This document shows, one piece after another, positions 6,325-51,300 of a stretch of 64,000 bases of DNA; position 1 is the stretch's first letter; every line of letters starts with the position of its first letter. The notes under the pieces are model-generated. The model did no database searches, was not told the DNA's origin, and saw only the letters and a program-made list of their open reading frames with translations. This stretch comes from a virus. The DNA lies in IMG/VR virus record IMGVR_UViG_3300023210_000013, positions 1-64,000 of that record; one strand, written 5' to 3'. Both the position numbers and the translations under genes were made by a program.

Positions 6325-6510
6325 TTATTTCTTTTTAGACCCGCTGTAAGTATTATGTGTACCACCACCCATACGCATTCTTTGAACCATAGGTTCAGTC
6401 ATATCACTATATGCTCCACCATAAGTCATTTTAGTAAGTAGTTTTTCACCACCACACTTCATGCAGCCCATGGCTCCACCGTTCTTATATTTTTTTTTAG
6501 CGTATCCCAT
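6325..6510 (-). CDS. small basic protein built of repeated xxxGG motifs (putative virion-internal protein)
   Basis: Contains YKNGG, MKCGG, MTYGG and MRMGG. ATG 6510 preferred over the track start 6525. Confidence 0.6.
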   Translation of the reverse strand: MGYAKKKYKNGGAMGCMKCGGEKLLTKMTYGGAYSDMTEPMVQRMRMGGGTHNTYSGSKKK

Positions 6511-9167: not shown

Positions 9168-9178
9168 AAATTAATACA

Positions 9179-9322: not shown

Positions 9323-9331
9323 AAAACTAAC

Positions 9332-18888: not shown

Positions 18889-18892
18889 ATCA

Positions 18893-27800: not shown

Positions 27801-30800
27801 ACTTTTGGATTTGCATTAATTTTTGCAAACAACTCTTCTACTAACATAGGGTTGTCTACTAATGCATCTATATTTCTAGCTTTAACAGATGCAAATGCAA
27901 CAAGAACTGTTTTAGCACCTTGACCTTTTTTATCTTTTACGCTTAACTTAAGAAGTATGTCTCCATTATCTTGTACTTTTAAATCCACAAAAGAATTAGG
28001 CACACTTGCCAAATAGAATCCACTATTAAAAGAATCATTAAAGTCATAGTTGTATTTAGAATCTACAACTTTGCCATCTTTAATATTATCGTCAACTGTA
28101 TCTTTTGCTCTTTGAACAAGTTTAGAATAAAGAACTGTTCTTTCACTTTCTGATACAGCTTTTTGTTTAAGTTGTACTAAAGTAATAGCTCCACTTGGAG
28201 ATTTAACAACAGCTACATATCTACCAGTTATTGAAGCAACATAAGATAGATTTGATTCTCCACTTTCTAATTCTGATTTTTTTAATTGATCTTCAACTGA
28301 TTGTATAAATTCTACTTCTTCATTTACATTTTCTATATCTGTAGTATAATTTGTAGATATACTACCATCTTTGTTTTTAGTATTTGTAATAATTATAGTA
28401 TTACCATCAAAGGTTCCATATACTAAATCATCTAAACTTTTTGCTATACCATCAAAACTAAATTTACCTTGCGTCAGCTTTAGTTCAGTATTTGTTTGCT
28501 CTTGGAATTCTGCCAATGTCATAGTAGCATTATTTTCCATAGCATCTAACTTTCCTGTAAGAGCTGCTTGTTTTATAACTTGAGATTTTAAATCTTCTAT
28601 GCTTGAACCTTCTGCTAAAATGTATGCGTTTAAATTATTATCAGTAAACTCATTTATACTAATGCTTTTTCCGCTTTTACCTTTAAAGCTAAAATGATTA
28701 TTTCTTACAAATGCAATAGAACCATCCCAACCAGCAGGATATAAGTCAGCAACTTTTTCTGCTGCTTCTTGTGACAAACTAATTTGCACCATATACTTAT
28801 CTCCATTTTTAGAAATAAATGGATTCTCTGGTTCTACACCTAACTGATAAGATGTTCCATCTTTAGGTATATTTAAAACTACCCTAACTATAGACTCATT
28901 TAATTCTTGCTCTGTAAGTCTTTCTAATATTTTTTGTAATCTTGCTTCAGCTTCCGCAACAGTTTCTCTTAAACCTGTTGTTTCATTATTCATTTGTTTA
29001 GCATAGATACCATTAATATCACGGTGATCTATCTTAGTCATGTTAGCAGAATACTTTACTTCAGCAACTTTAAGTTGTTCTTTAGTATATAAAGTATTAA
29101 ACCCTGCTTCTTCTACATAAAAAATAGATTCTAGTTTATCATTTTTAGATGCATCTAATTTTTCAAATGGAATTAATTTTAAAAGATTGCCTTTTTTAGT
29201 AGAGCTTTCTGTTCCAAGTACAATGTATTTGTTTCCATCAACATCAACTACCTCATCACCATACTTTATTTCTTGACCATCAAAGTTGTAAGCTTGCTCA
29301 CTAGGAACTATTTTAAGAAGTCTTTCCCAAGCACTCCATGCTTTGTCCATTTCATCTTGACTAGCACCGTAAGAGTTTCTAGCATTAGCTTCATCTAGAA
29401 ATGTTTGAGGTAATGTTTTACCTTTATTATCTACTATACTATATATGAAATCAGGTTCATTTGATCCTTCTTGGTAAACTGTTCTTTTTACAATGTTAAC
29501 ACCCGGTCCTAGTTGAGCTACTTTAGTAGTATTAGTGTTTACTATAGATTCTAAACCTTGTTCAGACTCAGCAGTAAATATACTTGAATCAATACCACCT
29601 AATGCTAAAAGGAATTTTACTGGTTTACTTTCAATAGATTCAGCAACCCAAGCTTTAAAACCTTCTTCAGCATTATAACTTTCTCCTTGTTCATCAAGTG
29701 TTTTAAACCACAGTCTTTTAAGACTATCTAAACCATTGACAGCATTATTACCTTCTGTAGAGTTTAACCATTCTTCTAAGGATACAATTGAATTACCCTC
29801 ATTAATATTTTTAATTTTATAAGAAGCATACATTTGCTCCAAGACATCCTGTGATACAGGAGATTGTCCTTCTAAAAGAATATTTGCATCAGGGGCACTG
29901 TTTATATCTTTAAAATCAGATTCATCTAAATTAGTTTCAACAGCATCATCAAAATTATCTTTTGACTTAGGTGCTTCAGTAGCTTTCTTTTTAGGTTTAT
30001 CAGTTTTTACTTCTTCTTCTTTTACTTTAAATCCAGAAGTCTCCTTGTAAATACTTATAAGAGCATTTATTTTTTCAAATATTTCTTTATCTATTTCAGG
30101 ATTAAGTACACCTTTAGCTGAAATAAATTGAGTTATTGATGTAACATCACGCGTTTCTATAAAAGCTTTAAACTGTTCATCACTTATTACAATACCTAAT
30201 TGTTTAAGTTGTTGAAGTAATATATTAGCATGCTCATCTGCAACACCAGCTTCCATATTTTTTTCAAATATATCTTTGGCCTTACTATATAAAACTTTAA
30301 ACTGATCACTTAATCTATCTACTAAATCTAAAACTTTTTCAGGGTCTCCAAATAAAGCAACTGTTCTATCAAACAATTGAGATCTTGTATCTAAGTTATT
30401 ATGATCAAGAAGTTGAGCTAATACTTTGTCTACTTCACCTCTTTTAATATAACCGTTTTTATTATTACTTCTAGCACCTAGTACTTTTAAATAATTAATT
30501 AACGGAGTTCTTAATTTATTAGATTTACTTCTATCATATACTTTTGAATCTTTATCATATATACTATCTAAAGCAACTTTATATGTTAATAGACTTGTAA
30601 GTAATTTTTGTTTTTGCTTAAGGTCTTTAGTTGTAAGCTTATCTTTATTATCAGTATCCTGTAGAGTTTTTATCTCTTTCATTAACATGACTACCTCTTG
30701 ATCAATAGTATCACTAGTTAGTAGTTTAGTTAAGTCACCTGCTTGAAGATTACTTAATACATCAGAAGATTCTAAAGCTGCCTCTAGACCAAATCTTCTT

Positions 30801-33178: not shown

Positions 33179-33182
33179 AATA

Positions 33183-36100
33183 TTACTTACCTTGAATAAT
33201 TGATGGTTTTATTCTTTTTTGTTCTTTCAAATTTTTTGCACTAAGATCAGCTAAAGACGCTCTATAGTTTGCTACTATTCTATCTACTTCATTAAGACCA
33301 GCAGGTTGCCCTTGCTCATTTCTAATTAGTTGAATAGGTTGCTGTCCCATTTTTTCAAATAGACCCGTTGTAGCATTAACACCTAACATCTCCATAGAAG
33401 AATAAAAAGCACCATCTTTATTGAATACTCTAAATGATCCTGCATTTTCTTTATACATGTCGTAAAGATAACTTTTATCTGGAGACATTTGAATTTTTTG
33501 ATTAACAGAAGAGAAATTATATTTGTCTAAGTTTAAATCTACTACAGCATCTGACTGTGGAAACATCATTGTTATTTCACTATACTTTTTAATTCCAGCA
33601 GCACTCTGAAGTCCAACTGGAGTTTTTGCTGCAGTTGATGCAAAGTCTTTTAAATACTGATCAGTATAAGTAACTTTCATTCCTGACATTATTGTACCAT
33701 CTTCTAAAGTTTTTACTACAGGTCTCATTTCAATACCCATAGAAAACTTTTTACTAGCAGCTGCTTTAGGATCTAATAAATATCCTCTAATATCTCTTAA
33801 ACTTTCACCTAGTATTTGATTAGCAGTTACATCATTTGTCCCATCTAATTCTTCATCTGATAATCCAGATGGAGTAATTATTTTTTCTCCTGGAGCATTA
33901 AATTGATCCACTAAGTTTTTAAGATCTGTATATACTTCTGGATTAACAGCTATAGAATTTATACTAAATGTACTTTTTGTACCACCATATGTATATAAAT
34001 TTGAAGCATTCATATCATCTAGTTGAACACCTCTAAAATAAGCATCAGCAGATAGTGGTTGAAATAATTTATTTTCAGGATCTAATCCTTGTGCATTATA
34101 TGATTCATTTAAAGTAGAATTTAAAACTTGTCTTTGTTGTGCATAATATTTTTTAGCATCTTCTCTAGCTTCATTTTCTACAAATATTGTATCACCCCAC
34201 ACATACTCATCAATTTTTTCATCCATATAATCTGCAATTCCAGGGAATATTGTAGCAGCCTGATATGTGTTATTACCTTTATCATCTCTTCTTCCTCTAC
34301 CTTCTATATAATCCGCATCTTTAATTGAACCTTTTTTGGCTTTTGCTATATAGCGTTCAATAAATTCTTCTTCTTCTAAGACTGTTCCATTATTAACAAT
34401 TTCAGGTACTCCAGCATCTGTAGCAGCTTTAGTGCTAAGACTAGATATTGTTTTAGAAGCATCCCAATTCTTTTGAATAGTTTCTTTACTTACTTTATCC
34501 CAATGTAATAATTGATCAGTTTCTCCTGCTATTCTATCACTAAGTTGAACTAAACTGTTATAACCAGGTGATGTTAAAACTCCAGGATTTGTTTTATTAA
34601 GTTCAGTTAATTCACCAAAACTTTTCTTGTAAAGATTTTCTAGTTCTGCAGCGTTCTCAGGTTTATTAAGTAATTTTGTAATTTGTTTTATATTACCTGT
34701 TTCTGTTTTACCGTTTATCTCAATACTAATAATACCTGTCTGCTGTGCAACAGGTAAATCAGATTGTTTCAATTCAAATAAAGACGTAATAAATTCTGGC
34801 TTCTTTGCATTTACAGAAGCTTCTTTTTTGCGTAAGTCTTCTGCATTTCTTGCTAATGGATCTTCTATCTCTTCTGTGCTTTCAGCAATTGTAGAACCTC
34901 CATCAGGTCCTGTCACTCCATCAAATATAGAAGCAGCAACAAAAGCAGGATTAATTATTTCACCTTTTTTATTTACGTTACCTTCTATTTTTCCTTTTAG
35001 TATAAGTTCATTTCTTCTATTAGAACTTGCATTGTTATCTCTAGCTAAATTATACTGATGTTGTATTTGCATTTTGGTATAAGGATTCTCCATTGATATA
35101 GTTTGAGAATAATCTCTTTTACTATATGATGTAGCCGCTCCTAAAATGTCACTGCTTAGATTATAATTCATAAGCATGTTGTAAGCAAAGTTTAGTGCAT
35201 CAGTATTTTCATCTGCTTCACCCATTCTTTGCAAGTCTCCTTCATTTCTTTTTAGTGCTTCATCTGAAGTTTCAAAAGCCTCAAAAGCTTCAAGCATTGC
35301 TTTATGCTCATCACTATCAGGTATAATACCTTCTTCCTTTTCATAACGTTCCCAATTTTGTTTAGCTTGTAAAGCTTTTTCAAATTGATTTCTAAGAATA
35401 GGATTTGCTTTTTCATTTCTAGCTCTTAAATCTTCTAAAGTACTTTGAGCCCAAGCGTTCTTTCCTTCTCCAATACTGCTGTATTGTCCATTTTTAAAAC
35501 CAATTTCTGCATGATTTCTTGCAGAAACAAAACCGCTTGTTCTATAAGCATCAATAACTTTAGGATCTTCCATTAAGGTTTTCATCAAAAAGTTATAAGC
35601 ACCAGGTACTTGAAGAGAACCATTCTTTTGTCTTATGATAAAAGGATCACCTTTCTTAACTGGTAAATCCATTTCAACATCTTCAAAACCAGCATCCTTT
35701 AGAATCTTCATTGACATAGTTTCTAAGTCTACATTCTCTACATAAGTAGGTAAACCTGCTTTTAAAGCATCATCTCTATTGTCATTTTTGAAATCTTCCA
35801 TTTGGTAATTCATTGCCTGAATACCTGTGGCCCAATATTTTTTTCTTTCTTCAGCACTAGCAGATGCTTTTAAAGAACCTGCTAATTGCATATTTCTTTT
35901 ATACTGAGAGGTAAAAACCAAATCTTTAACTATCAAGTCATCCTCATAAAAAGGTTTGAATAAGGATTGAGCAGAGTCAACATTTTGACGTATGGATAAA
36001 TCCATTCCTGATAGCTTCTCTATTCTAGGGATTAGTTGTTCAGTATATTGATTTCTTGCATCTATTGTGTCTTCTCTTGACATATCTGCATAAACAACTT

Positions 36101-36245
36101 TACTGTATTGATCACTCAACTGTTTATAGTTAGTGTCAAAACGGTCTTGTCTGGTGTCTAAAACAGCAGACATGAATTTATAATCCGGAGTAAACGGTGT
36201 TGTTTCTCTTTCATATCTTTGATATCCTGGTACGTATGTTGCCAT
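33183..36245 (-). CDS. virion cargo/ejection protein
   Basis: 1020 aa, Cys-free and helical, MATY..G...PFTPDY N-terminus, immediately upstream of the vRNAP gene. Confidence 0.65.
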   Translation of the reverse strand: MATYVPGYQRYERETTPFTPDYKFMSAVLDTRQDRFDTNYKQLSDQYSKVVYADMSREDTIDARNQYTEQLIPRIEKLSGMDLSIRQNVDSAQSLFKPFYEDDLIVKDLVFTSQYKRNMQLAGSLKASASAEERKKYWATGIQAMNYQMEDFKNDNRDDALKAGLPTYVENVDLETMSMKILKDAGFEDVEMDLPVKKGDPFIIRQKNGSLQVPGAYNFLMKTLMEDPKVIDAYRTSGFVSARNHAEIGFKNGQYSSIGEGKNAWAQSTLEDLRARNEKANPILRNQFEKALQAKQNWERYEKEEGIIPDSDEHKAMLEAFEAFETSDEALKRNEGDLQRMGEADENTDALNFAYNMLMNYNLSSDILGAATSYSKRDYSQTISMENPYTKMQIQHQYNLARDNNASSNRRNELILKGKIEGNVNKKGEIINPAFVAASIFDGVTGPDGGSTIAESTEEIEDPLARNAEDLRKKEASVNAKKPEFITSLFELKQSDLPVAQQTGIISIEINGKTETGNIKQITKLLNKPENAAELENLYKKSFGELTELNKTNPGVLTSPGYNSLVQLSDRIAGETDQLLHWDKVSKETIQKNWDASKTISSLSTKAATDAGVPEIVNNGTVLEEEEFIERYIAKAKKGSIKDADYIEGRGRRDDKGNNTYQAATIFPGIADYMDEKIDEYVWGDTIFVENEAREDAKKYYAQQRQVLNSTLNESYNAQGLDPENKLFQPLSADAYFRGVQLDDMNASNLYTYGGTKSTFSINSIAVNPEVYTDLKNLVDQFNAPGEKIITPSGLSDEELDGTNDVTANQILGESLRDIRGYLLDPKAAASKKFSMGIEMRPVVKTLEDGTIMSGMKVTYTDQYLKDFASTAAKTPVGLQSAAGIKKYSEITMMFPQSDAVVDLNLDKYNFSSVNQKIQMSPDKSYLYDMYKENAGSFRVFNKDGAFYSSMEMLGVNATTGLFEKMGQQPIQLIRNEQGQPAGLNEVDRIVANYRASLADLSAKNLKEQKRIKPSIIQGK

Positions 36246-36304: not shown

Positions 36305-38878
36305 TTAATAACCTATCTTACCTAGATAAAATGGGAGAAACTTTTTAACTTCCTTACCTTTTTTTGCTGTTGGGTATCCACTACTAGGTGAATGTTGACT
36401 TCTCATTTGTCTTAATTGATCAGCATAAGGGTCCGCTCCGTAACCTTGTGGTGTTGAAGCTGTTGCATTTTTACCATATGTTTTTCCTAATATTGTATTT
36501 ATTGTAGTGCCATCTAAACCTTTAGCTTTTAAATCTAAAGCTCTTGATGTCATTTCATCATAAGGAGTTAACTTATTACCAGACTGTTTGTTAGCTGCTA
36601 AAGGCGGTGCTCCATTATTCCATTCTATTGCTCCAGCTTGTGTTGGATCAACATTATAATAAGGATACAATGTATTCATACTATATGTGTTAGCCATATT
36701 AGTATAAGCATTAGCTGTTAAATCAGCCATCTGCTCTCTATCTAGATTTTTCTCATCCATGAAATTCTGCTGAGTTAATTGAGTAGCATCATATTGAGAT
36801 ACACTTCTATCTCTTTGTTCTCTTTTTGCAGCTGCTCCTAACTGAGAATTCATTGCTAAACCTTGATTTACAGTATTGATATTTCTACCATGTGTTCCTG
36901 CAAATACGTTTGCGTTTTGTTTAAATGCATTAGCTCTACTTTGCGCTAATCTAGCATTCATACTTTGAGGTCCTGCAAATGCACCAATAGCTTGTGATGC
37001 AATATTTAACTGCTCATTAGTATCAGCCAATTGTCTTGTAGGTTCTTCAAGTACATAATCTACTTTAGGAATTTCAACTTGAGGTTGCCAAGGCAAAAAC
37101 ATTTCTCTATCTCTCATAGCAAGAGCACCCATTTTTAATAGGTCTTGAGTATAAAATGATTTGTCTGGATCTTCATACTTATATTCAGGATCACCTGGTT
37201 TAATTTCTATTTTAGGATCCGGTTCTTTTTCTACTGCTGGTTTAGCCGTTCTACCTAATGGTCTCCTTGAGGAAGTAAATGTTCCAAAATCACCATCATA
37301 ACCTTTTCCTTTTTTGTTTGGATCAAATCCATAATCTTTATTAAGACTGGCAGTTAAAGTACTTTCCATTTCAGGAGTCCATTCTTTACCTTCTTCTTCA
37401 AACGTTGCTTTAATTCTTTGTACTTCTTCTGGTATATATGTATCATTTATCCAATGTTGGAATTTTTCTACATCTGGATTTGTACCATCTGCTTTTTGAG
37501 AAGATATAGACGTTTTTAAACTTTCTATATCTGGATATTTATCTTTCCAAGCTTCAAAGAAACCTTCTTGATTTTCAGCAGCATCTCCATAAAGACCACT
37601 TCCTTTTGTATAGCCTTGTCTATCTTTAAAATTTGTTTCACCTACACCTATGCTATTAACATCAATACCTAATTTTTCATAGTATGCAATAACTTTAGGA
37701 TCCCATGCTACATTAGTCTTTCCTGATGACTTTTTCTTTTTAGGAGTAGTAACAGGATCCTTTTTAGTAACGGCTGTTTCTTCAGCAATAACTTCTTCTG
37801 CGGTAGTTGAATTAGATGAACTAGGTGTATATTGTTTTTCAACACTTAATAATGCATCAGCTAAACCATTTGGTCCACCTGCATTAAAAGCATCTTCTAA
37901 CTTTTTCTTTAAAGCATTTCTTGTTTCCTCATTTAAAACAGCAGGTGTTACTTTGTCAAGCATAGATTCAAAGTCCATTGGGCTTGTTCCAGCTCCTGAT
38001 AATGGTGGGAATGTAGGTACACCATACTGTGCTTGTGGTAACATTTCTGTACCATATTGAGCCATTGCCATTTCTTGAGGCATCTGCTGAGGCATCTGTT
38101 GTTGCATACCACCTTGACCACTTTGCTCCATCATGTCTCTTAGAGCCATTATCTGTGCTTGTTGTTCTGGAGGTAATGCACTTATTGCTTTTAATGTAGC
38201 CTGTTGTTTATTTATGTTTTCAACTTTTGCTGTAAACTCAACAGGATCTTGACCTTGAGAAACTAAATAAGGGTATGCCGCTAAAGGCACCCCATCTGAA
38301 AATTGTTTTTTAGCTTCTTGTCCAAATGCAAGTTTAGATAAACTTTTCATATTTTTATCTATCATTAAGTCTGCACTATTTGCTTTTATAGAATCTACAT
38401 CAGGGCTAGCCAATGCTCCTATAAATTCATTTAATTGATATTTTTTAGAAATTTTTGCAGGAGTCATTGCTTTTTTAGATTCAATACCAAACTCAGCCAA
38501 TTCATTTTTTTTGAATTTCATTTTTTGAGTATCTGAAAATATAAAAGACTGTTCAGGCAAAAACATTGGGACACCACCACTACTGTGTCTAGGCCCATTA
38601 ATATTATAAAGACCAAACTGACCATCATCATTTAAATCAGTAAGAACAGTTTCCCCTCCTTCTGCTTCTAAATTAGCCATATCTCTAGGTACAGAAGTTA
38701 ATGAATATTTCATATCACCTTCTGTAAAAGAATTAGATGACTCCATAGAAGAACCACCTGTAGCTAAACCATAATCAAATTGACTTCCAGTCATACCACC
38801 TTGTTGCATTTCTTTTACAACTTTACCATCTTTAATTTTAAAGCCTTTTGGTAGTTTGTTTATTTTAATCTTTGCCAT
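36305..38878 (-). CDS. virion cargo/internal protein
   Basis: 857 aa; ANLEAEGGETV...GPRHSSGGVP domain; Q/M-rich linker; MQQGG, MAQYG and PQAQYG motifs. Confidence 0.65.
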   Translation of the reverse strand: MAKIKINKLPKGFKIKDGKVVKEMQQGGMTGSQFDYGLATGGSSMESSNSFTEGDMKYSLTSVPRDMANLEAEGGETVLTDLNDDGQFGLYNINGPRHSSGGVPMFLPEQSFIFSDTQKMKFKKNELAEFGIESKKAMTPAKISKKYQLNEFIGALASPDVDSIKANSADLMIDKNMKSLSKLAFGQEAKKQFSDGVPLAAYPYLVSQGQDPVEFTAKVENINKQQATLKAISALPPEQQAQIMALRDMMEQSGQGGMQQQMPQQMPQEMAMAQYGTEMLPQAQYGVPTFPPLSGAGTSPMDFESMLDKVTPAVLNEETRNALKKKLEDAFNAGGPNGLADALLSVEKQYTPSSSNSTTAEEVIAEETAVTKKDPVTTPKKKKSSGKTNVAWDPKVIAYYEKLGIDVNSIGVGETNFKDRQGYTKGSGLYGDAAENQEGFFEAWKDKYPDIESLKTSISSQKADGTNPDVEKFQHWINDTYIPEEVQRIKATFEEEGKEWTPEMESTLTASLNKDYGFDPNKKGKGYDGDFGTFTSSRRPLGRTAKPAVEKEPDPKIEIKPGDPEYKYEDPDKSFYTQDLLKMGALAMRDREMFLPWQPQVEIPKVDYVLEEPTRQLADTNEQLNIASQAIGAFAGPQSMNARLAQSRANAFKQNANVFAGTHGRNINTVNQGLAMNSQLGAAAKREQRDRSVSQYDATQLTQQNFMDEKNLDREQMADLTANAYTNMANTYSMNTLYPYYNVDPTQAGAIEWNNGAPPLAANKQSGNKLTPYDEMTSRALDLKAKGLDGTTINTILGKTYGKNATASTPQGYGADPYADQLRQMRSQHSPSSGYPTAKKGKEVKKFLPFYLGKIGY

Positions 38879-38880
38879 AA

Positions 38881-40968
38881 TTATAACATTTCTATATCAG
38901 CACCTGCTGCTATTAATGCAGCTAGTGTATCATTATCAACTTCTATTTCTCCACCTGTTTGCATTTCATCTTGATGTATGAAACCCATCTTAGACATTCT
39001 TTCATGGTCACCAGGTTTATTTGCTTTATAACCTTTTCCTGTTTTAGGATCAAACATCATGTGTGGTTCAAACCCACCGCCAGCTTTATATATTTCTCTC
39101 CCATACTTTGAATAATAATCAACTAGATTATTTTGTTCTTGTAAGCCACTGTTTACATCAAAGTTTCCTTGAGCATTAGGTACGTCTGTTACAGCATAAA
39201 CTTTATCTGCGTTTGTTTGACCTCTTAGATCATCTAGTTGATCAGTAGGATCTGTAAATGCAGTTAATAAATTAGCACCCATTACAAGACCTTTGCTTAT
39301 ATCACCTACAGCATTCATAACAGGACTATCTTTAATAAACGTTTCTGCTTGATCTATTGCATTACCTACAGATCTTTTTCTTTTAACAGTAGGTTGTGCG
39401 CTTGTATTATCTGCAGCTGGTTCATCTGCAGCTGTTAATGGAGTATTAACCTGTAGTGGGTTAGCAACACTTTGTTGTAACTGAGAATCTTTTACTGCTT
39501 GAGTATCTCTATTATAATCTGTTTTTAAGGCACTTTGTAAAAAGTCACCCATGCTATTAGGTATCTGAAAATTTTGTTGCTCTTGCTGTAAAGGAGTTGG
39601 TCCCATTGGGCCTACTGGAACATCTTGTTTGTTACCATACATCCAATCAGGTATGTTAAATTGAGCTTTAGGTAATGGTGTACCACCATATCTAAACTCA
39701 GCATTGTCATACATAAGCATTAAGTCATTTTGACTTTTACCTTGAAGCATAGGACTTGTTGAATTTTTAACGTACCATTCTTTAAAGCTTGGTTGATCTG
39801 CAACAGGAGATTTACTAGAATTTGGCACCGCCATCATACTTGGCTGATTTGCAGCAGCTGTAGTTAATGGAGCATCTGTTGAGCCTTTATATACATATGG
39901 AGAAAAACCAGGAGCTTTTTGAGCACCTCGTTGTCCTGTTACCATATCTCTATATCTACCTCTGTGTTTAGCTTTTTCTTCTTCTGTTAGATTTTCTAAA
40001 GATTTTGATATTGGATTACCGTTATCATCATAACTAAGAACTACGTCTTTACCGTATACACCACTTTCATTTTTTAAAGCATTAGCAACCATAAATGCAT
40101 TATCCTCACCATATTCTTTTATACCAGAAGTAATGTCTGCAATTGTCTGACCGTGTTGTAATCTTTGATTTTTAGGTATAGCATCAAGTTCTAATTGACT
40201 AAAAGCCATGTTGCCTGTAAACTTATTAAGTTCTGGATTAAAATCAAACTCTGAATACTTAAATAAATCTGCTGCTTTTTCTTGACGTGTTTTTACTACA
40301 CCATCATTTAAATCTTCTAAAGTTACAGCATAATTTGCTTTATCATTATCACCAAAATCTACTTCATAAGATTTATTACCAAGTTGTTTTTGTTTATATC
40401 TAGCTTGTTTACCATCCCAATCACTAAAAGTATTTTCCATTTCACCAACAAAATCATTTAGCATATATGCTGCATTAATTAAGCTGTTCTTTTTTGGATA
40501 CGGTGTTGAGTATATAGGTCTATAACCTTGATTAGGTTGTCTATCTATAGGCCCTCTAGCAGTAGTTTCAAAACCAACATTTGCTTGAGGTACTTCAACA
40601 TTGTCAAGTTGTTCTAGAAGTTCTGCTTGTGGATCAGCAGACTGACCTTCAGCTACATTACCTGGCATTTGTCCAGGCTGTTCCGCTTGCATAGACTGTT
40701 CTTGTGCTGCTTTTATTTGTTCAGCACCTAACAGTAAATCTGCAAATTTAGATGGATCATAACCTGCTTCTTCAAAGACAATGTTTAATTGATCTGGCTC
40801 TATACCTTCTTGCAAGTAAGATGCAAGAATTTGTGCAGGCTCTTCACCAGCTTCAATACGTTGTTGTACTTCTGCTGAAAGTTCTTGCAAAGGAACGTCA
40901 TTAACTGTTTTATTTACAGCTCCACCTTCCTGGTATAAACTTATTTTATTTAGTTCTTTTTCCATCAT
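38881..40968 (-). CDS. virion cargo/internal protein
   Basis: 695 aa, low complexity, several xQxGG motifs, C-terminal GGEIEVD...LIAAGADIEML. Confidence 0.65.
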   Translation of the reverse strand: MMEKELNKISLYQEGGAVNKTVNDVPLQELSAEVQQRIEAGEEPAQILASYLQEGIEPDQLNIVFEEAGYDPSKFADLLLGAEQIKAAQEQSMQAEQPGQMPGNVAEGQSADPQAELLEQLDNVEVPQANVGFETTARGPIDRQPNQGYRPIYSTPYPKKNSLINAAYMLNDFVGEMENTFSDWDGKQARYKQKQLGNKSYEVDFGDNDKANYAVTLEDLNDGVVKTRQEKAADLFKYSEFDFNPELNKFTGNMAFSQLELDAIPKNQRLQHGQTIADITSGIKEYGEDNAFMVANALKNESGVYGKDVVLSYDDNGNPISKSLENLTEEEKAKHRGRYRDMVTGQRGAQKAPGFSPYVYKGSTDAPLTTAAANQPSMMAVPNSSKSPVADQPSFKEWYVKNSTSPMLQGKSQNDLMLMYDNAEFRYGGTPLPKAQFNIPDWMYGNKQDVPVGPMGPTPLQQEQQNFQIPNSMGDFLQSALKTDYNRDTQAVKDSQLQQSVANPLQVNTPLTAADEPAADNTSAQPTVKRKRSVGNAIDQAETFIKDSPVMNAVGDISKGLVMGANLLTAFTDPTDQLDDLRGQTNADKVYAVTDVPNAQGNFDVNSGLQEQNNLVDYYSKYGREIYKAGGGFEPHMMFDPKTGKGYKANKPGDHERMSKMGFIHQDEMQTGGEIEVDNDTLAALIAAGADIEML

Positions 40969-40976
40969 ATCATACT

Positions 40977-40990
40977 ATTAATATACAAAT
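40977..40990 (-). promoter_or_regulatory. conserved phage promoter motif
   Basis: - strand ATTTGTATATTAAT in a 24-nt intergenic gap. Confidence 0.5.
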
Positions 40991-40992
40991 AA

Positions 40993-43900
40993 TTAAGCGG
41001 TTTCCCTAATAATATTGCTCATTATATAGTTGGGAGAAGTTGTCCCACCTAGCCTTGCTTTCCTAAGATAAACTCTATTAAGTTTATCATATACTTTTTG
41101 AGCTTGTTTTTGCATGTTTGTATTATCATACATGCCTTTCATATAATTCTTATACATTGTTAATTCATTCACTTTACTTTTAGGCTCTCCTCCATGTGCC
41201 ATAGTTGATGGCTCAAAGTCATTAGCGGGTGTTTCCACATAAGCATAATTTTCAGGAAATAAATCTGTTCTGTATTTATTTACTTTTTTAATATAGGAAT
41301 CAGACGGTCTTACAGATCCAGGCATTCCTGTTGGTAGCACTTGACCCACTTTAAAAGCAGCATCACCTATAATAGGTAAATGTTTATAATTAGTTGAATT
41401 AATATCTAATAGTGTAGCATCATATAATTCTCTTAAAGCTTGAACTTCAGTTTCAGCATTTCTTGAATCAGCAACTCTACCTGTTTTTAAAAGTCTATTT
41501 GTTCCTTGATTATAAGCTAGAATTGACATGTTTCTAATATCTTCTTCTGCTAAATTTAATTCAGGGTAAGTGTTTGAATAATCTTTAAACGTTTCATAAT
41601 TTTTTGTAATCAAATAAGTTATTGCGTCAATTGCTTTATCATCTGACTTTCCTAAATCATCAGCACTATTAATTTGAAAATAACTCTTTGCAAAATTATC
41701 TAATGCCGTAAGTTTAGTTTTACCTATTCCTAATGAAACGTCTTTAGGTTTATAACCTTTGTAATCATAGACCATATTTTTAACATACCCCGCATCTTCC
41801 TTACTTCTTGGAACAGATGCACCTACCCCGGTTTCTGCACCAGTTATACCAACTATTGTTGACTCTAACCATTTAGGGTCTACAGAAGAATTTAATATTT
41901 CTGGTATTTTAGTTGAATTATATTTAGCTCTTTTAAATACATTTTCAAGTTGTGTAAGTCTTTCTCCTTCGTAATCACCTGATTGATATCTTAAAGATAA
42001 ATTTCTTATTGTAGATGGATCAATTTCAATATCTTCAATACCATCAACATTATAAGTTGAATTAACTTTAATATCTTCTTTAGGTCTTCTTATCCATCCA
42101 GTAACTAATTCATCATATGGTTGTTGTAAAACTGTACCATTTACATTATGTGTAATAATTGGAACACCATCAATAACATCTGATACAAATCCAGTATGTG
42201 TATTGTGTGTTTTTGAGTTTAATGTTTCTTCATGATGACTTGAACCATCCCAATATAATCCAACAATATCACCTGTTTTGTAATCACTTGCTTTTGTTTG
42301 TTTTTTTCTTTTTACTTCTTTTGTTATTCTTTTTATATCTTCTGCGGACGTAGCATTATCAAATGCTTTGTCATCATATATATTAAAAACAGATTTACTA
42401 TTTTCAACATCATTCATGTTTTCAAATATGTCCCATGCATTTTTATACTTAATACCTAAAGACTCTGTCATAACATTATTACCTTCCAATATACTACACA
42501 TTCCGGCAGCACATCTTCCATCTTTTAGTTTACTAGGTATAAAGTCAAACACTAAAGCATTTGGATCTTCTTCAGTTTTTTTTGTGTTATAAGCTTGTAA
42601 AGCTTCTTTTGTTTGTTGACCAAACTTACCATCTATACTTGAACCTTCTTTATTAAGTAGTGTAGCAGACATAAATCCTTTATCAACAAGGTCTTGTTGA
42701 ATCCTTAATACTTCTTCTTTATTATCAGGATTGTAATTTTTATAATATTTTGATATTGCTGATGGTGCTAAATTTACATCATCTATCATAGATTTGTGAG
42801 CGGCAAATGTTTTTGCTCCATAATCTCCATCTGCTCCAGTTGCTCCTATATCATATCCTTTACTTAATAAATCTTTTTGTAAAGTTTCAACTTCAGAAGG
42901 AGAAGCATTTGTCATATCTTTCCAACCTCTTGCATAATCATTTGAGCTCTTAGTAAAATCAGAAACTAAATTAGGTCTTTTATATTTTGATTTTTCTAAT
43001 CTACTTTCTTTGTCCAAATCAGCTATTACGCTGTTATACTCTTCTGGGCTAAGTGGCTCATTAAGATTTCCATCTTTTATAAAAGGTAATTGCTTCTGAG
43101 TTATAGCAGTATTATCTCTTACTACTGTTGTGTCTAACATTTGATTGTTTACATAATCAGCACCTGCTTGTTTTAAAAATTCTTGTAATTTTGAAGCTGG
43201 CTCAAATTCTGGTTTACCAAGATTTGGTATCACACGTCTAGTGGCAACTCTTGTATTATCTTGAACTGCGGTTCTCCATTCTCCATTACCATATTGAAAT
43301 GATTTATAGCCATTCTTAATACCTTCTTTTTCTGCTGCTTTTTTACTTTCTAAAAAACTAGCACGGTCACCTTCAGCTTCTACATTTTTATGACCCTGTA
43401 ACCAAAGATCTACAGGAGATAAATTACCATTTGTAAAATCAGATAACTTAGCTTTTGACTCTATTAAATTTGCAAAAAACAATGCGTATTGATCTTCTGA
43501 TGACAACTGATCAGCTGATGTAGCATTTACAATACTATCTTTTATAGTATATCCTTTTGCATCTGCAACATTTTTATATCTTTTTAATGCTGTATTAAAT
43601 GATTCACCTTCAAATTGAAATAACCCTCTACCAGGCCCACCTTGATACTGTTTAGCTTTTGGATCCATTCTTGACCACGGACTTGATTCATGAAATGCAA
43701 TTGTATCTGCTAATTGTCCCCATGTATCTTTTGTTCCACCTCTGGTTTCTACTATATAGTTTGATATATTATTATAATCTAATATTTTAGAATTATCAAC
43801 TTTGTCTTCTCCATTACCATCTTGTGCTTTTGGTATACCTCCATACTTTAATTTGCTTTTTAAAACTTGTTTGCTCATGTCCCAACCAGATTCTATTTCA

Positions 43901-45321
43901 TCTAGTTTATTAGCTATACCTTTAAAACTATTGCTATCATAAAAGTTTTCATAACCAGCATCCTTAATAAACCAGTTGTCTGTTGCACCTGTAGATGCGT
44001 GTCCACCATACGGTTGCCATAATCCTTCAGTAGTTCCTGTTTTTCCTGCTCCTTTTTTTCCAGCTAATCCACTTGATTTGTAAAATAATTGTGATTGACC
44101 ATTTGGCAATGCTACTTCTGCAATCTGTCTACCAAATTTATTTCCATGATTAATTACATTAGGTGAAATTACATCATTAGCATTAAAACCAATTTCATCT
44201 AAATGTTTTCCTTGTGATTTCATAGATGTTAAAGCATCCTGAATACCTTCTGGTGATCTACCATAGTTTGTAACTCCTCTTGACCAACTAGGTTTAACAT
44301 TATCTGCAACTTTAACTGTATTTTCTACAACTTCTTTTGCTATTGTTTTTTTCAAACCTTTTTTTAAACCTGCTTGTGTAACGTTGTTAATTAGATTCTT
44401 AGCTACACCTGCTCCTACGTATGTACTTGGATCAGTTGCTAAGTTGGTAATAAATGCACCTACAGGATTTTCTACCAATGGATTCCCATTTGCATCTTTT
44501 AATCCAGCTACATTTTTTACAGGTGTACCATTTTGATTTGTAAATGTAAATGTTTCATCATCTGATCCTGGTGTTGCAAAGCTTGGCATAGCGTTCATAA
44601 AATTAAACTCACCATCACCACGTCCTGTAAATGATTCAGTAGCCTCTGCTATAAGATTTGCAGGTATTCCCATTACACCTAATAAGTTAGATATATTAGC
44701 TGCTGGTACTTTTGCCATTTCTTTAACAAGACCCCAAACAGATTTTTCTTCTACTTCTGTACCATCTTGAGCTTTAGGTTTCCAAGAACCTTTACCAAAC
44801 TTTATTGCACTTTCTTTATCTGTTCCAAAGTCTATAACCTCACCTCTTCTTTGAGCTTCTTTATATGCTTCTTTCCAAGGTTTAGTAGACATGTCTATCC
44901 AAGTACCATCCGGGTCTTGAAATAGTGTAGGAAAAGAAAACCAATTTTTACCATCTAAAGTTTCAGTTGCCATAAGATGTGTGGACTCAGAGCCATCTCC
45001 ATTGTCCCTAACACCTTGTCTTTTTGGAACTTCATAACCTGTCTGTACCATAGGTACTTCTAACACACTATCTCCTGGAAACTGATAGTTACCACCAGGC
45101 TTCATTATTTGTTCATTACCTAAGTTGTCTCTACCATATACAGGAAAGTCTACACCTTCCATAGTAATATTACCAGATGGTATGATATTATAAGGATTGT
45201 TTACATCAGGTGAATTTCTTTTATAACCTTCTGTTGAAAACAAATTTGATACATGTGTTATGTATTCATTTGGGCCTCCGGGTAAACCTCTGCTTTCTTT
45301 ATGTTCAGTATTTTTTTTCAT
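40993..45321 (-). CDS. virion-associated multi-domain peptidoglycan hydrolase (lysozyme-like + 2x PG-binding + NlpC/P60-like + SLT-like)
   Basis: HES...GPGRGLFQF; two LQ..L...G.....DG.[YF]G..T PG-binding motifs; RCAAG..GDIVGL..HTGFV..THN; GAETG...AYNQG. Confidence 0.75.
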   Translation of the reverse strand: MKKNTEHKESRGLPGGPNEYITHVSNLFSTEGYKRNSPDVNNPYNIIPSGNITMEGVDFPVYGRDNLGNEQIMKPGGNYQFPGDSVLEVPMVQTGYEVPKRQGVRDNGDGSESTHLMATETLDGKNWFSFPTLFQDPDGTWIDMSTKPWKEAYKEAQRRGEVIDFGTDKESAIKFGKGSWKPKAQDGTEVEEKSVWGLVKEMAKVPAANISNLLGVMGIPANLIAEATESFTGRGDGEFNFMNAMPSFATPGSDDETFTFTNQNGTPVKNVAGLKDANGNPLVENPVGAFITNLATDPSTYVGAGVAKNLINNVTQAGLKKGLKKTIAKEVVENTVKVADNVKPSWSRGVTNYGRSPEGIQDALTSMKSQGKHLDEIGFNANDVISPNVINHGNKFGRQIAEVALPNGQSQLFYKSSGLAGKKGAGKTGTTEGLWQPYGGHASTGATDNWFIKDAGYENFYDSNSFKGIANKLDEIESGWDMSKQVLKSKLKYGGIPKAQDGNGEDKVDNSKILDYNNISNYIVETRGGTKDTWGQLADTIAFHESSPWSRMDPKAKQYQGGPGRGLFQFEGESFNTALKRYKNVADAKGYTIKDSIVNATSADQLSSEDQYALFFANLIESKAKLSDFTNGNLSPVDLWLQGHKNVEAEGDRASFLESKKAAEKEGIKNGYKSFQYGNGEWRTAVQDNTRVATRRVIPNLGKPEFEPASKLQEFLKQAGADYVNNQMLDTTVVRDNTAITQKQLPFIKDGNLNEPLSPEEYNSVIADLDKESRLEKSKYKRPNLVSDFTKSSNDYARGWKDMTNASPSEVETLQKDLLSKGYDIGATGADGDYGAKTFAAHKSMIDDVNLAPSAISKYYKNYNPDNKEEVLRIQQDLVDKGFMSATLLNKEGSSIDGKFGQQTKEALQAYNTKKTEEDPNALVFDFIPSKLKDGRCAAGMCSILEGNNVMTESLGIKYKNAWDIFENMNDVENSKSVFNIYDDKAFDNATSAEDIKRITKEVKRKKQTKASDYKTGDIVGLYWDGSSHHEETLNSKTHNTHTGFVSDVIDGVPIITHNVNGTVLQQPYDELVTGWIRRPKEDIKVNSTYNVDGIEDIEIDPSTIRNLSLRYQSGDYEGERLTQLENVFKRAKYNSTKIPEILNSSVDPKWLESTIVGITGAETGVGASVPRSKEDAGYVKNMVYDYKGYKPKDVSLGIGKTKLTALDNFAKSYFQINSADDLGKSDDKAIDAITYLITKNYETFKDYSNTYPELNLAEEDIRNMSILAYNQGTNRLLKTGRVADSRNAETEVQALRELYDATLLDINSTNYKHLPIIGDAAFKVGQVLPTGMPGSVRPSDSYIKKVNKYRTDLFPENYAYVETPANDFEPSTMAHGGEPKSKVNELTMYKNYMKGMYDNTNMQKQAQKVYDKLNRVYLRKARLGGTTSPNYIMSNIIRETA

Positions 45322-48300
45322 TATCTAATGGACATATTTAATTTAGTGTTTGCTATTTTAAGAAGCATCTTTCTATCTCCAGATACATTACGTCTTAATA
45401 GTAATTTATTATAATAGTGTCTGAACTTTTTATGTTGCAATGGATCTTTAGCATAATTTAAATTAGCGGCATTAAGATCTTTTATGTAACCATTCATTTG
45501 AGTAATAAACTTACTTCTTTGAATACCTGTAAACTCACCTCTATCATCAGTAATATCCCAGAACTGATTAAATCTATACTTCTGTTCTTCTTTAGAATAT
45601 AGAATTCTAATATCATTAGTTCCTATAATAGGATATTGTAGTGCTGCAAACGGATCTTCTTTTGGTGTTAAGTCTAATTTTAATAATCCAGATACTTGTT
45701 CTGAATTATATATAATACTTTCATCAAAGTTAAAATCTAAATCATGCCATCTATCATCTCCACAAGCAAGTAGTAAATCTCCTTTATATACATAAGATTC
45801 CAATTGGTATTCAACACTTCTAATAGTGTTAACAATTTGACCTGTGTTTTCTATTACTTCTACTTCCCATGGGTAATCTACACCATAGTAATTAGAAAAT
45901 AAATCACACCTAACATTATGCCTCCATAAAGATCCTGATTCAAAACTAGGTTGAGTTGAAAATGATCCAAAATAATTACAAGTTAATGGATTAAAATTAA
46001 TATAACTTGGACTACCTGTTCCTAATACATTAGTTAAATATACATCATCACATACTCCAGTTTCAGTAGTACTAGCTTCTGGAAATGCTGGACCTGGACA
46101 ATTACATTCTACTTTTCTACAAATAGGAGGGTTTGCAACAGTACAATCTCCTTCAGATAAAGTATAATTATTATTAGAATCAGGATACACAACCTCATAA
46201 CCTTCGGGACATTCACATGTAGGAGGTGCACCACATATAGCACCAGCAATTGCAGTTGATATAACAGCTGATGTATTATTAGGTTGAGATCCATCTGCAA
46301 TCATTACAAAATCTTGCGTTGGATCATTACAAGTAATTTGATTTATAATAGCTACTGCATTTGCATTTGGGAAATTTGATGTATTACACCAAACACTAGT
46401 AACATTATACTGAGGTAGATTTTGATATTGACAACCGTTAGGAGTACCAGCTGTCCATGCAGCATCAGTCATAAAAATCATTACTCTTGTAAAACCAGGT
46501 TGTCCTAATCTATTTCCTAACTGAGAAGATGCTGTATTATTTAAAATACTATCTGCATGTGCCATACCTACTGGAATGTCAGTACCTGACGTAGGGTTTG
46601 GAGCATACCATGCATTTACAGCAGCTATATTTAAACCGGTACTTTGCATTGAAAATCCACCAGGATTAAATGATTGTGTGAAATTTGCATTTCCCCATTT
46701 TGTAAATCCTATTTGAAATGTACCATTAGCTAAACCTGCAGTTACTTCAGGACTACCTAAAAACTGAGCTACAAATTGTCTTTGTGCTGCTATGGGTGCA
46801 CCAAGTGTACTTGTAGACCAATCCATTGCTATTACAATATCTAGTGTACAATTTACTGTATTATCTACTACTGTTGCCGGTACTTCTTCTACTACTACTG
46901 TTGCTGGTTCTACTTCACTATAAATTTTTTCACACAAGTTTGTTGCAGGATTAAAAGTATATCCCGGAGGACATGTGGGTGATTCATTAGCAACTGTCTG
47001 TGTAGTTAAAAAATGATTAATACTAGGTAGTGCAAGTTCAGGATGCCAATCATGAAATGAAATCCATGCTTGTGATTTAGCATCATAAGAAACTGTCCAA
47101 GAAGCATCTTCAAAATAAAGCGGGTCACCTACTTTTATTGGTGTACCAGGACTTGCCGGTAATGTCTTATACACAAATCCATCATTAACAAAATGTACTT
47201 CTCCTCCACCTGAACCAGGTATTAAATTTTCTTTTACTTTATAATCTTTTTTCATAAAGTAAACTATATCATCATTGACATCATATATACTTTGACATCC
47301 AATTCCAATAACAGGGTTATCAGATAACTTACTAAATTCAAGTTCTGGATACTGTTTTACAAGAATAGATGGGAGGTATTTATTAAACCACCATTTCATC
47401 CCTTTATTAGAAATATTGTCAAGCTTTCCTGTGTAATGAAATATCTTACCTTGAGCTTGTGACATGTAGTATATTCCTGTAGGTGTATTTACTACAGATC
47501 TCATGCTTTCAGATGAACCATATTCATTGGATAAATCAGAGTTTGCAATATTCTGTAAAGGTTGACTAAATAGTCCACCGTCACCTATTGTAAGTTTTGT
47601 CCCTAAGTCTGTTTGCAGTTGATCTACACCCTGGAACATTACAGGAGATTGATAAGGAAATAATATAATTGCACCACTCTTACTTATAGGCTTTATTACA
47701 TTTACTTCACTTTTAAAATCTTTATAATTGTTTGGTAAAAACACTCTCCAAAAATCTTTCTTTGCTTCTTTTTGTGCTTGTAAAGAATATATAAGTCTTT
47801 TAGGATAATACTGATAGCAATTTTCTGCAACGTAAGGATCATAATCTCTAGGTTGTACATTACCAAAAGATGTAACTTGAGTTATCATTTTACTAATACT
47901 TAATGATAAATCATACTTATAAAAGTTATCTTCTTTTTGAATATCAGCATGAAATAAATCATCTGTATTTGTATAATCATAAACATCATAATGACGTTTT
48001 GCAGGAGTATCATCCCAATCTCTTTGTGAAAGATTATATTCTGATTCTACAAAAAAGTCTTGCACTCCATTAACGTGAGTATACATATAAGCATACCTCA
48101 TAGCAAAAGAAGGATTTGGATCATTAGGTAATCCTAATAAACCTTCTATAGTAGAAGGACAAGAATTACTACCTCTATCTAAATAAAATAAATCATTTGG
48201 TAATGGATCACTAGAAGAACCTAAACCTAAAGTTGCAACTTCTAAACCTAATGATGTAGTATCATATTTTCTTGTGTCCATCCAAAATCTTGGATAAGGA

Positions 48301-51300
48301 ATATTAACACGCTGTAAATAATCATATGTAAATTGATCAGGCTGGCCATTTAAAAAATCTGCAAAAATAGGCATTATATTTTTTTCAGTATATCTATTAA
48401 CATATACATCACCTCCAAATATAGGCTTTGATGTAAATGGTTGATTAGGATATTCTGGTACAATTAGTTCTGTACAGCCTTTCATTTGAATTTGTTTAAT
48501 ACCGTCAATTTGACCATATTGATTTTCAAACTCAAACTTTAATCCTCCATATCTAGCAGATATACTTTTTTTCTGTTCTTGATCAGGACTTTTTATATAA
48601 TTATCACCATAACTATTATCAGCATCTCCACCTATAGTAAATCTAGATTTGTCTATTACAGACGGGTCATTTAATTCATCCGCTGTTGCTATTGCAACCG
48701 TATCTGGTCTAAATAAATTATTTATTTTAAAACCTTGAAATTGCTGAAAAGAACTCCCAATGTAGTTGGCATTTAAATTTTTAGTTCTGAATATATCATT
48801 ACTAGAAGAAGGTGTAAAATTATTATAAAACCCGTGTGAATTATATTTAAAAGCAAAATCTTCTTCTTTTACTAAATTATATATTAAATCAATTATTTCT
48901 TGAGCTCCAATTGCAATGTTTGCTGCACCCAATGGAACACCTAAAAGTGCTCTAAATACTTTTGGTAAATTTGAACTTGATGTATTATATGAATAAGTTG
49001 TATCTTTTCTACCACCTTGTATTCCAGGTATCAACCCTTTGTTTTTATCTAGTAAATGATCTGAGTAGTTTACCCCCCAATCAGTTACACCACCATCCCA
49101 TATACTAGTAACCTGCGTTAAGTCACTAATAAGAGCATCAATTACAATATCAGTTATAGTTGTTGCTACTCCAACTCCTTCAAATACACCTAAAGCAAGA
49201 ACGTATCCGGGGTTTGGATAAGAACTACCTACACCGGCAGGACCTGCAAATCCAAAATAAGGACCTAGAGGTGGTGGAAATGGACCAAATGTTTCACCAG
49301 CATAAACAGTCCCTTTAGTACCTTGCACTTGATTAATAGCATAACCTATTCCAATAATTGCAGCAATAACAGCACCACCGTTTCTTATTAATTTATTTTG
49401 AGGATGATTTTCAGATTTTATAAAATGCCCTACAGACTTACCTGAAACTTCACCATAGATTCTAGTTTCAAAAGCATTTAAAAAAGGCTTTCTAAAATTT
49501 AACTCAGGAGAGTGAAAAGTAAAATAATCTTTTTTATATCCAGTTAAAGGCTTAAAACCAGAATTAGAAAAAACACTTTGACTCCAAGAATCACAACCAT
49601 CTGTTCTATTATTATTAGCACCATCATGGAAATATACATCAGGTCTTAAATCATTATAAGGATAGTTTGGATATAAACCTTTAGAATTACCTAAAGTTTG
49701 ACCACCTGCAGGAATATCATATTCCCTCATGTTTTTAAATATACCTTTAGCTAAAATAGATCTATGCCCTTCACGTGATCCTCTTAATATTTCATAACCA
49801 ACTATATCTGTTAAAATGTTTCCATCATTATCTAAAGGTGGTTTTATGTTTTCAAACTCTACACCAATTATTCTTATTGAGTTTCCATTGGTTGTAGATA
49901 AATGCAAATCAGAACTTAATTCTTCAGTAGGTATTTTATGGTGTCTAATATATTTTCCACATAAATCATTATCTGGTGAAACATTTCCCCAAATAGGATC
50001 AGAAGAACTATTCCAAATATCAGGTCTTGTTGCTGGATATTTTTCAGTAGATTCCCAATAACCCATGTAACCTTTAGCAATAACACTAGTTCCATCTTCT
50101 AATATTTCACTAGAGCCCGGTATAATAGTAGCTGTATTATAAACTTGAAAGTTCTTTTCTTGACTGCTTAATGTATTAGTTCCACCAGCTGTTGCTGTTT
50201 CATTTACTACTTGACCAAATTGAGTTATACCGTTTGTTGATGGAGGTCTACCTGGAATATGATAAGAGCTAGATCTATCACCTGTATTAAATATCCACCT
50301 TATAAAAAATGCATATTGTTCATCTCTCATTAAACCTGTTTTGTTACCTCCATTATAATAATAAGAAGCAGGCATTTCTGCAGAAACCCATTTAGATCTA
50401 ATTTGATTTGCTAATGGTTGATAGTTAAAATCAAATTTTTCTGTAGGTCCTTGTCTTATAAGCCAATCATTTACAATATACATTGCATCTGATTTTTCAT
50501 ATGCCGGATTCATTAAAGGAATAAGCTCTAATGGAACACTAACTAAAGATTGATCTATATAATCTATTTCAATATCTGATTGCTCAGTACTATATAATCC
50601 TAATTTTTTAGCTACGGTATTTTCTTGATTATTAGATAGTATTACTAATTCATAATAATCAAATTCTATATCTAAATTTGTTACATTTATTTTTAATGCA
50701 CCTGAATTTCCTCTGTGATCAAATAAAGATTGCACATTTGATACACCAATATAATCAGTAACTTTTTGTTCATTTACTGTGTAAGCAACAAAAGCTTGAT
50801 ATGATCCATTTCTTAATTGACCACCACTAATAGATTTTTCTATATGTACACAAGGCGTATCTAATAAAGGAGCAAGTCTAATTTTTTCACAATCTAAATC
50901 ATTTGTGTCTTCATATATAACACAATCAGCTCCTTCTTCTGATACCTCATTTTGAATATAAGGTATGTCATTTATATTTAAAGTTCTTGATGGGTTGTTA
51001 CCATCATCCCAATATATTTGCCAAGTACAGTCAAAGTTTTCTTTAGAAGCACCAACAATTAAATGTAATTTATTAAAAGATAAACACGTATCATTAACAA
51101 GTGATGTATATTCACACTTGCTATCATCAAACAATCCTATTTCAGAATTAATATTATCTGTACCAAAAAGAACCCAGCTATCCTGATATAGATGAATAGC
51201 TCCTATTATTGTGTAAGGTATATTAGCACATTCTAAGTTTGCTGGTTCATTACCAATGAGACCAACATCCCCATCTACAGAATTGTTAGCTGCATTACGC

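Follow-up and report, generated by a model that had tools for sequence, protein, structure and literature searches.

Three adjacent genes of an uncultured crAss-like phage raise the question of why one short peptide should recur at the joints of their modular products. The genes lie at positions 36,305 to 45,321 of a 64,000-nucleotide stretch of viral DNA (hereafter the window; positions 1 to 64,000 of IMG/VR virus record IMGVR_UViG_3300023210_000013) and encode proteins P0001 (1442 aa; 40993..45321), P0002 (695 aa; 38881..40968), and P0003 (857 aa; 36305..38878); unless marked otherwise, all coordinates below are window positions on the minus strand. The peptide, here called the tag, consists of an aromatic residue or Met, then Lys, Gln, or Arg, then any residue and Gly-Gly (the N-half, or GG half), and is often extended by x-Leu-Pro-Lys-Ala-Gln-x-Gly (the C-half, or LPKAQ half), an extension that belongs to the marine clade of the window phage. 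An original prediction had offered two roles for it, as a cut site for a maturation protease or as a capsid-targeting signal. What is observed here is the motif itself: it is enriched, conserved as a peptide, placed at exchange borders and in stretches predicted to be disordered, and spread among crass-like phages. As to function, we favor, at what we judge to be an even chance, an uncut junction tag that combines a Gly-Gly hinge with conserved contact residues in many copies; both the absence of cleavage and the contact with a partner are what we infer.

A motif concentrated in three genes behind the muzzle gene

Because the pattern first described was loose, the motif was defined anew and independently. 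Scanning IMG/VR with a degenerate DNA pattern for the 10-residue core G-G-x-[L/F]-P-K-A-Q-x-G returned at least 120 loci, with 148 matches among those listed, all in frame; the open reading frames (ORFs) listed as holding them are nearly all long (about 250-2700 aa), and the residues that precede the core are F/Y/K, then K/Q/E/R, then Y/E/D/N. A position matrix built from 127 distinct tags of other IMG/VR contigs was run over the phage's own genome, which is rated complete (115,581 bases, 103 ORFs, 36,308 aa). All four genome matches to the C-half (L/I/K-P-K/Q-A-Q-x-G/N) fell within the three genes, whose products account for 8% of the proteome (binomial p 4.6e-5), and shuffled proteomes yielded 0.1-0.3 such matches versus the 4 observed. 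The N-half (Phi-K/Q/R-x-G-G) matched 20 times, with 7 matches in the three genes (~six-fold enriched, p 7.7e-4) and two further ones in a 66-aa ORF. The motif is thus real and concentrated in the three genes: an excess over the rest of the proteome, which the original prediction had expected, is confirmed by the independent matrix, and every peptide it had listed translates as given. Of the approximately 17 copies claimed at the time, about 13-14 stand by orthologue conservation (YQEGG, PQANVG, FRYGG-TPLPKAQF, YKAGG, MQTGG, PMVQTG, KPKAQDG, LKYGG-IPKAQDG, FQYG, MAHGG, MQQGG, and MAQYG/LPQAQYG), while SKYG and AKKG are weak or unsupported. Chance or low complexity as the origin of the tag is ruled out by the matrix enrichment, the shuffled controls, and the in-frame matches across IMG/VR.

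At their synonymous positions the 127 tags use codons just as the remainder of their ORFs does, so selection acts on the peptide and not on a DNA or RNA signal; a recombination site or RNA element was rejected on this ground. A muzzle gene is present in 19 of the 29 IMG/VR records that hold the full core, among them every one of the six with a completeness of 90% or more; the others are fragments. The tag ranges from the marine clade to the type phage crAss001, which has the GG half only, and the GG half is the older of the two. Pfam searches with ten tag-bearing ORFs outside the main cluster gave essentially no matches, and nucleotide and protein searches against cultured phages returned fragments of Melnitz and Cellulophaga phages only. 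No relevant paper describing the tag was found, including by a literature search for the literal motif.

In the source genome, the genes for ring protein 2 (52332-53003; Pfam CrAss_Ring_2), ring protein 1 (51451-52332; Pfam CrAss_Ring_1), and the muzzle protein (45321..51446; Pfam crAss_MUZ, 3e-27; phrog_37948) are followed immediately, on the same strand, by the three tagged genes and then by giant polymerase-type proteins, and this gene order is identical in six related contigs. The products of the post-muzzle genes of crAss001, namely cargo proteins C1 (gp45) and C2 (gp46) together with three polymerase-associated proteins, were all found in virions (PMC10172136). By synteny with crAss001, P0001, P0002, and P0003 are probably virion cargo that is packed and injected. 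The downstream proteins of 1020, 4761, and 1906 aa (13168..36245), for which there was no Pfam match, are presumed from their position and size to be further cargo or a virion RNA polymerase; the matrix scan found zero tags in them, and the tag is therefore not a universal packaging address.

Module exchange at the tags

P0002 is predicted to be mostly disordered, with small folded modules between tags, and its orthologues range from 95% down to 38% identity with the tags as invariant islands in the alignment. Its five tags are YQEGG near the N terminus (residues 12-16; 40921..40935; L11, Y12, Q13, G15, and G16 invariant in 11 orthologues), PQANVG (residues 127-132; 40573..40590; a decayed copy that aligns with PQMQYGG of distant relatives), the full composite FRYGG-TPLPKAQF (residues 425-437; 39658..39696; supported by matrix scores, with G428, G429, P433, K434, A435, and Q436 invariant), YKAGG (residues 627-631; 39076..39090; conserved as YK.GG), and MQTGG (residues 669-673; 38950..38964; G672 and G673 invariant). 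Among the orthologues, the median distance between a large indel border and the nearest tag is 1 aa, versus 40 aa for random positions, and 81% of exchange borders fall within 15 aa of a tag (25% at random). In two relatives (P0015 and P0016), a deletion runs exactly from the tag at the YKAGG position (YKKGG) to the MQxGG tag, and in two others (P0007 and P0009), ~85 aa are inserted between two MQxGG copies. Behind the last tag, the C-terminal end-piece EIEVDNDTLAALIAAGADIEML (38884..38949) is nearly invariant in orthologues, and close variants of GG-EIEVDNDTLAALIAAGADIEML (..GGE..[VI]D......L[IM].AGA[DE]IE[IF]L) are found at 8 of 113 distinct tag-bearing ORF ends on other contigs; this end-piece may itself serve as a docking helix at the terminus. 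A mini-domain at residues 633-668 (38965-39072; PHMMFDPKTGKGYKA..DHERM.KMGF.H; AlphaFold predicted local distance difference test [pLDDT] 62-70) lies exactly between two tags, and residues 547-666 share 34% identity with hypothetical proteins of Methylophilales phage Melnitz.

P0001 combines a transglycosylase-like module, a PG_binding_1 domain, a Cys-His module, and a conserved C-terminal end-piece, with profile matches to Pfam PG_binding_1 and PHROG endolysin/phrog_3108. Its orthologues, which like those of P0003 were drawn from six syntenic IMG/VR contigs, are 1154-2057 aa long and carry common modules in shuffled order; in both sets of orthologues the tags are conserved as they are in P0002. 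The first of its tags, MKPGG (residues 73-77; 45091..45105), is an N-half that the original prediction had missed. It is followed by PMVQTG (residues 90-95; 45037..45054), a decayed N-half that closes the conserved N-terminal module and reads PMYKRGG, FQNGG, or FQYGG in orthologues; KPKAQDG (residues 181-187; 44761..44781), a C-half with a matrix score of 17.4 whose orthologues align as LPKAQDG and LPKAQQG; LKYGG-IPKAQDG (residues 491-502; 43816..43851), a full composite tag supported by both the matrix and the orthologues; FQYG (residues 675-678; 43288..43299), a decayed tag at the end of the transglycosylase-like module, where the L006 orthologue has LQDGG; and MAHGG(E) (residues 1374-1378; 41188..41202), which precedes an invariant ~60-aa C-terminal end-piece and whose G1377 and G1378, together with E1379, are invariant across 6 orthologues. 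Ends of BLAST high-scoring segment pairs fall within 20 aa of a tag in 46% of cases, versus 17% at random, and many BLAST segments begin or end on a tag in both partners. The claim that tags bracket each P0001 module holds for the exchange units and fails for residues 680-1373, a stretch of 694 residues that contains two PG-binding-like repeats, the Cys-His module, and a second transglycosylase-like domain (the last two recognized by eye) with no tag between them; tags therefore mark exchange units and not every fold. The Cys-His module (residues 919-1082; 42076-42567; RCAAGMCS ... HTGFVSD ... ITHNV), which occurs only in some relatives, has by eye the look of an NlpC/P60-type cell-wall peptidase and matches no Pfam family. 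The N-terminal module (residues 29-96; 45034-45237; EGYKRNSPDVNNPYNIIPSGNITM.GVDFPV) also opens many unrelated tag-bearing ORFs.

The presence of cell-wall enzymes among these modules, as indicated by the PG_binding_1 and endolysin-like matches, suits a role after ejection, in which a host envelope or cytoplasmic factor (a chaperone, peptidoglycan, or a membrane component) would use the tags to pull, anchor, or help refold the modules. Cargo of crAss001 is believed to leave the particle partly unfolded (PMC10172136), which points the same way; however, nothing points to a host partner, the LPKAQ half is specific to its clade, the present observations fit docking inside the virion equally well, and we regard a role after ejection as the least probable of the readings considered.

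P0003 consists of a conserved N-domain (residues 60-255), a variable middle, and a conserved C-domain. Its N-terminal tag MQQGG (residues 24-28; 38795..38809) has M24, G27, and G28 invariant, and the composite MAQYG-TEM-LPQAQYG (residues 272-286; 38021..38065), supported by orthologues and matrix, marks the edge of the variable middle; AKKG (residues 838-841; 36356..36367) is conserved as KKGKE and is doubtful as a tag. The composite is partly tandem-duplicated in the window genome (EMAMAQYG-TEM-LPQAQYG), relatives having a single PMA.YG.ELPKAQ.G. A profile of the N-domain retrieved 1,926 clusters among 1.84 billion proteins; in relatives that have this domain fused behind another protein, homology begins at the MQQGG tag (query position 22-25), and the junction of the fused gene reads ..KYGGxxMAxGG... 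Tags are thus the exact points at which relatives acquire, drop, relocate, or join modules, a pattern that matches the plug-and-play architecture first proposed for these genes and bears out the expectation that modules would come and go at the tags.

AlphaFold2 models place every modelled tag in linkers of pLDDT <50 between confident modules. For residues 1-300 of P0003, both tags flank the confident core (60-255) in such segments, and for P0002, all five tags lie in stretches below pLDDT 40, outside small confident modules at residues 30-90, 200-240, and 633-668. This predicted disorder is provisional because the alignments are shallow (11-12 sequences).

The motif also occurs free of any module. 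As originally proposed, a micro-protein at 6325 is built of tags: the 61-aa basic product of 6325..6510 contains 4-5 N-half tags (YKNGG, MKCGG, MTYGG, and MRMGG) and ends in SGSKKK. Its gene is conserved in 3 of 5 related genomes, where the products are likewise basic, carry four to six M/Y-x-x-GG tags, and end in SGPKKKK. The window micro-protein (MKCGGEKLLTKM) also resembles a zinc-ribbon-like mini-module (CNNCSW...CHKCGGEALPKAQDG) that is found at residues ~90-140 of the P0001 orthologues in L001:6760-6900 and L004, where it stands in for the window's module 96-181.

Position in predicted disorder would be expected of mere flexible linkers kept by descent, with neither partner nor processing, one linker having been duplicated together with neighboring modules; neighboring sequence is indeed partly co-duplicated (e.g., NGEVPLNRGEIF follows three tags of L005). 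Neutral linkers would decay much faster, however, whereas here 8-10 specific residues are near-invariant among proteins with unrelated flanks and among orthologues that share 38% identity, at least 120 contigs have the motif with its synonymous codons free, and a protein made only of tags is conserved as a gene. We consider inheritance without function unlikely.

Cut sites or uncut joints

The hydrophobic-x-x-Gly-Gly pattern resembles the GG-type sites of viral and bacteriocin-leader cysteine peptidases. Under a cleavage reading, the tags would be cut after Gly-Gly by a novel phage protease or a host protease, so that the polyproteins would be split into individual effectors, and the 12-28 residues at the N terminus would serve as targeting propeptides to be removed, like those of T4 internal proteins. 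The pattern does occur at every joint and near both termini, the N-terminal leaders are short, and the split and fused forms of the genes would give identical mature products. As in the sites of the adenovirus protease, of African swine fever virus (ASFV) pS273R, and of C39 double-glycine peptidases, a hydrophobic residue stands a few positions before Gly-Gly, and the substrates in those systems are likewise virion core or precursor proteins. Unlike in those sites, the hydrophobic residue of the tag is at P5 and not at P4 (the adenain consensus), and the primed side (LPKAQxG) is conserved as strongly as the unprimed side, which is unusual for a cut site. Nor was a peptidase of such a family found: PF04586 (S78), PF00574 (ClpP), PF02902 (C48), PF03412 (C39), and PF00770 (C5) had no match at E<=1 in the complete genome, while control genomes responded. 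Self-processing by the Cys-His module of P0001 was rejected as a general mechanism, the module being absent from two complete relatives that bear tags. Furthermore, some C1-like proteins start directly with MAxGG or MKVKIKRVRGG, so that a cut would free only 5-11 residues (5 in the case of MAxGG).

Further evidence comes from gp45 of crAss001, the closest known counterpart, for which structures are available (PDB 7QOG, 7QOI, 7QOJ, 7QOL, and 8CKB; Bayfield et al. 2023, PMC10172136). The gp45 gene also lies just after the muzzle gene, and its product likewise has a basic N terminus (MAK..KI..) followed by aromatic-x-x-GG. It contains six of the 19 aromatic GG pentapeptides present in 18,065 structural-protein residues of crAss001 (6-fold enriched, p 1.6e-4), at residues 17-21, 206-210, 260-264, 329-333, 424-428, and 559-563, and these positions flank both segments resolved by cryo-electron microscopy (cryo-EM), 214-245 and 425-552 (PMC10172136). 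In contrast to the window proteins, gp45 has no LPKAQxG half, and the window phage has two additional tagged proteins (P0001 and P0002) between the muzzle and the C1-like gene. Homology of P0003 to gp45 found no support. Pfam PF25725 (crAss_CARG1) matched none of P0001-P0003 at E<=0.01 and none of 31 P0003-family members, the hhalign profile comparison with gp45 was insignificant, a PDB profile search gave no support, and searches for the 7QOG chain M fold of the portal-bound domain with the model of P0003 1-300 (Foldseek and VIA-align) gave only generic helical matches; a crAss_CARG1 search of the phage's own genome was also empty, with its controls likewise silent. On the failure of these searches P0003 is not filed as a C1 member, which leaves a positional and N-terminal resemblance.

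The portal-bound domain of gp45 was modelled from residue 425 (PMC10172136). This modelled start lies inside the NAFGG tag (424-428), and residues 425-428 run continuously into the following domain, so that the model holds tag residues joined to the next domain. The protein has been described as a single stretched chain from the tail barrel to the capsid (PMC10172136 and PMC10136315), thought to be stored stretched out and to be the first to be ejected (PMC10172136). Neither the structural paper (PMC10172136) nor the 2023 review (PMC10136315) mentions proteolysis or a protease, and the tag itself is not discussed in the former.

A published gel bears on the same point. We re-analyzed the matrix-assisted laser desorption/ionization (MALDI) peak lists of the 2018 crAss001 gel (source data of PMC6235969), a set that covers bands 1-10, all at least 58 kDa, with bands 11-13 outside it. 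By their fingerprints, band 3 clearly held gp47 and gp50, and band 4 gp49 together with gp44; going by the sequence in which the paper lists the band sizes, these bands are about 270 and 150 kDa, and gp47, gp50, gp49, and gp44 therefore appear intact. In these bands gp45 did not rise above decoys; the portal, of equal copy number, is itself borderline, so that the absence of gp45 carries little weight in the question of cleavage. The re-assignment also placed gp44 in bands 1-2, gp26 and gp22 in band 6, gp22 and gp25 in band 7, gp25 in band 8, and gp23 in band 9, and gp46 was likewise not seen in bands 1-10.

The available crAss001 structural data indicate an uncut tag. With none of the five protease families found in the genome, proteins that begin at MAxGG, and a gp45 model that runs into the tag, the maturation-protease half of the original prediction fares poorly, and we consider cleavage rather unlikely.

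Comparison with known signals and a proposed role

Another close counterpart from a cultured phage is gp041 of Cellulophaga phage phi17:2/phi4:1 (Lightbulbvirus), which shares the N-terminal module of P0001 (46% identity over 67 aa) and has six GG tags (FQAGG, YQNGG, LKSGG, FQIGG, FQSGG, and the C-terminal LKWGG). Its gene lies two genes after that of the muzzle-like gp043, whose length (2289 aa) is that of the PHROG profile phrog_37948, which matches the window muzzle. It differs in carrying the GG half only and in uniting in one protein modules that are separate in the window phage. Since gp041 is annotated as a virion structural protein of a cultured phage, it is the best experimental handle on the tag.

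The T4 internal-protein capsid targeting sequences and the cargo-loading peptides of encapsulins are short, flexible, portable peptides that load unrelated proteins into an HK97-fold shell. Such signals are single and terminal, and that of T4 is removed by gp21 after L-x-E. The tag, too, is a short linear motif in a flexible segment, and it occurs at cargo termini (the N-terminal tags at residues 12-16 of P0002 and 24-28 of P0003, and the C-terminal tags). The crass tag differs in being internal as well, in its many copies, in the lack of sequence similarity, and in being missing from other presumed cargo. By this analogy, the tag would act most like a capsid-targeting or cargo-loading peptide, and the capsid-targeting half of the original prediction is possible.

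The uncut junction tag that we favor could work as follows. The three post-muzzle genes would encode ejection proteins built as beads on a string, with each exchangeable module flanked by a short linear motif in a flexible linker. The Gly-Gly joint would let the modules be stored and then threaded singly through portal and tail, while the conserved side chains would make many weak, repeated contacts, either with an internal surface of the virion or from tag to tag, that could hold any tag-bearing module in the cargo zone during assembly. The basic, tag-only micro-protein may join this network of contacts as a multivalent filler or cross-linker. With the signal at the joints, modules could be added, lost, moved, split, or fused while the signal is kept.

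Several observations weigh against this proposal. The virion location of P0001-P0003 is drawn from synteny only, and P0003 has no match to the Pfam crAss_CARG1 model and gave none beyond generic helical ones in the searches for the 7QOG fold. The fission and fusion of genes at tags and the placement of N-terminal tags 12-28 residues from the start are equally explained by cleavage. Other large presumed cargo proteins have no tag, so that it is not a general address; no binding partner emerged; and the crAss001 maps show no tag as a bound element apart from the opening residues of the portal-bound domain. A 13-residue motif is conserved beyond the needs of a hinge, and the low pLDDT may in part stem from the shallow alignments.

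Crassviruses carry megadaltons of protein cargo, and to our knowledge nobody knows how that cargo is selected, stored, and ordered for ejection. It is conceivable, and we put it forward tentatively, that a component of the crassvirus particle, either a new Gly-Gly-specific processing enzyme or a repeated internal receptor, reads the tag as a portable code, and that tag-flanked modules are thereby loaded and injected. If so, cargo would be addressed by a general system in the phage order that is most abundant in the human gut, as well as in its marine relatives, and an address or processing code of this kind could be used to load chosen proteins into phage particles. The tag accounts for the free exchange of enzyme modules among these proteins, and it offers a concrete handle that can be mutated, tracked by mass spectrometry, searched for in unassigned cryo-EM density, and fused to reporters.

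Elsewhere in the window, which has a G+C content of ~31% and long minus-strand genes, genes for the small and large subunits of ribonucleotide reductase (8187-10957, plus strand) lie between the cargo block and the micro-protein operon, and two collagen-repeat, tail-fibre-like proteins are encoded at 57704-58894 and 60857-62263.

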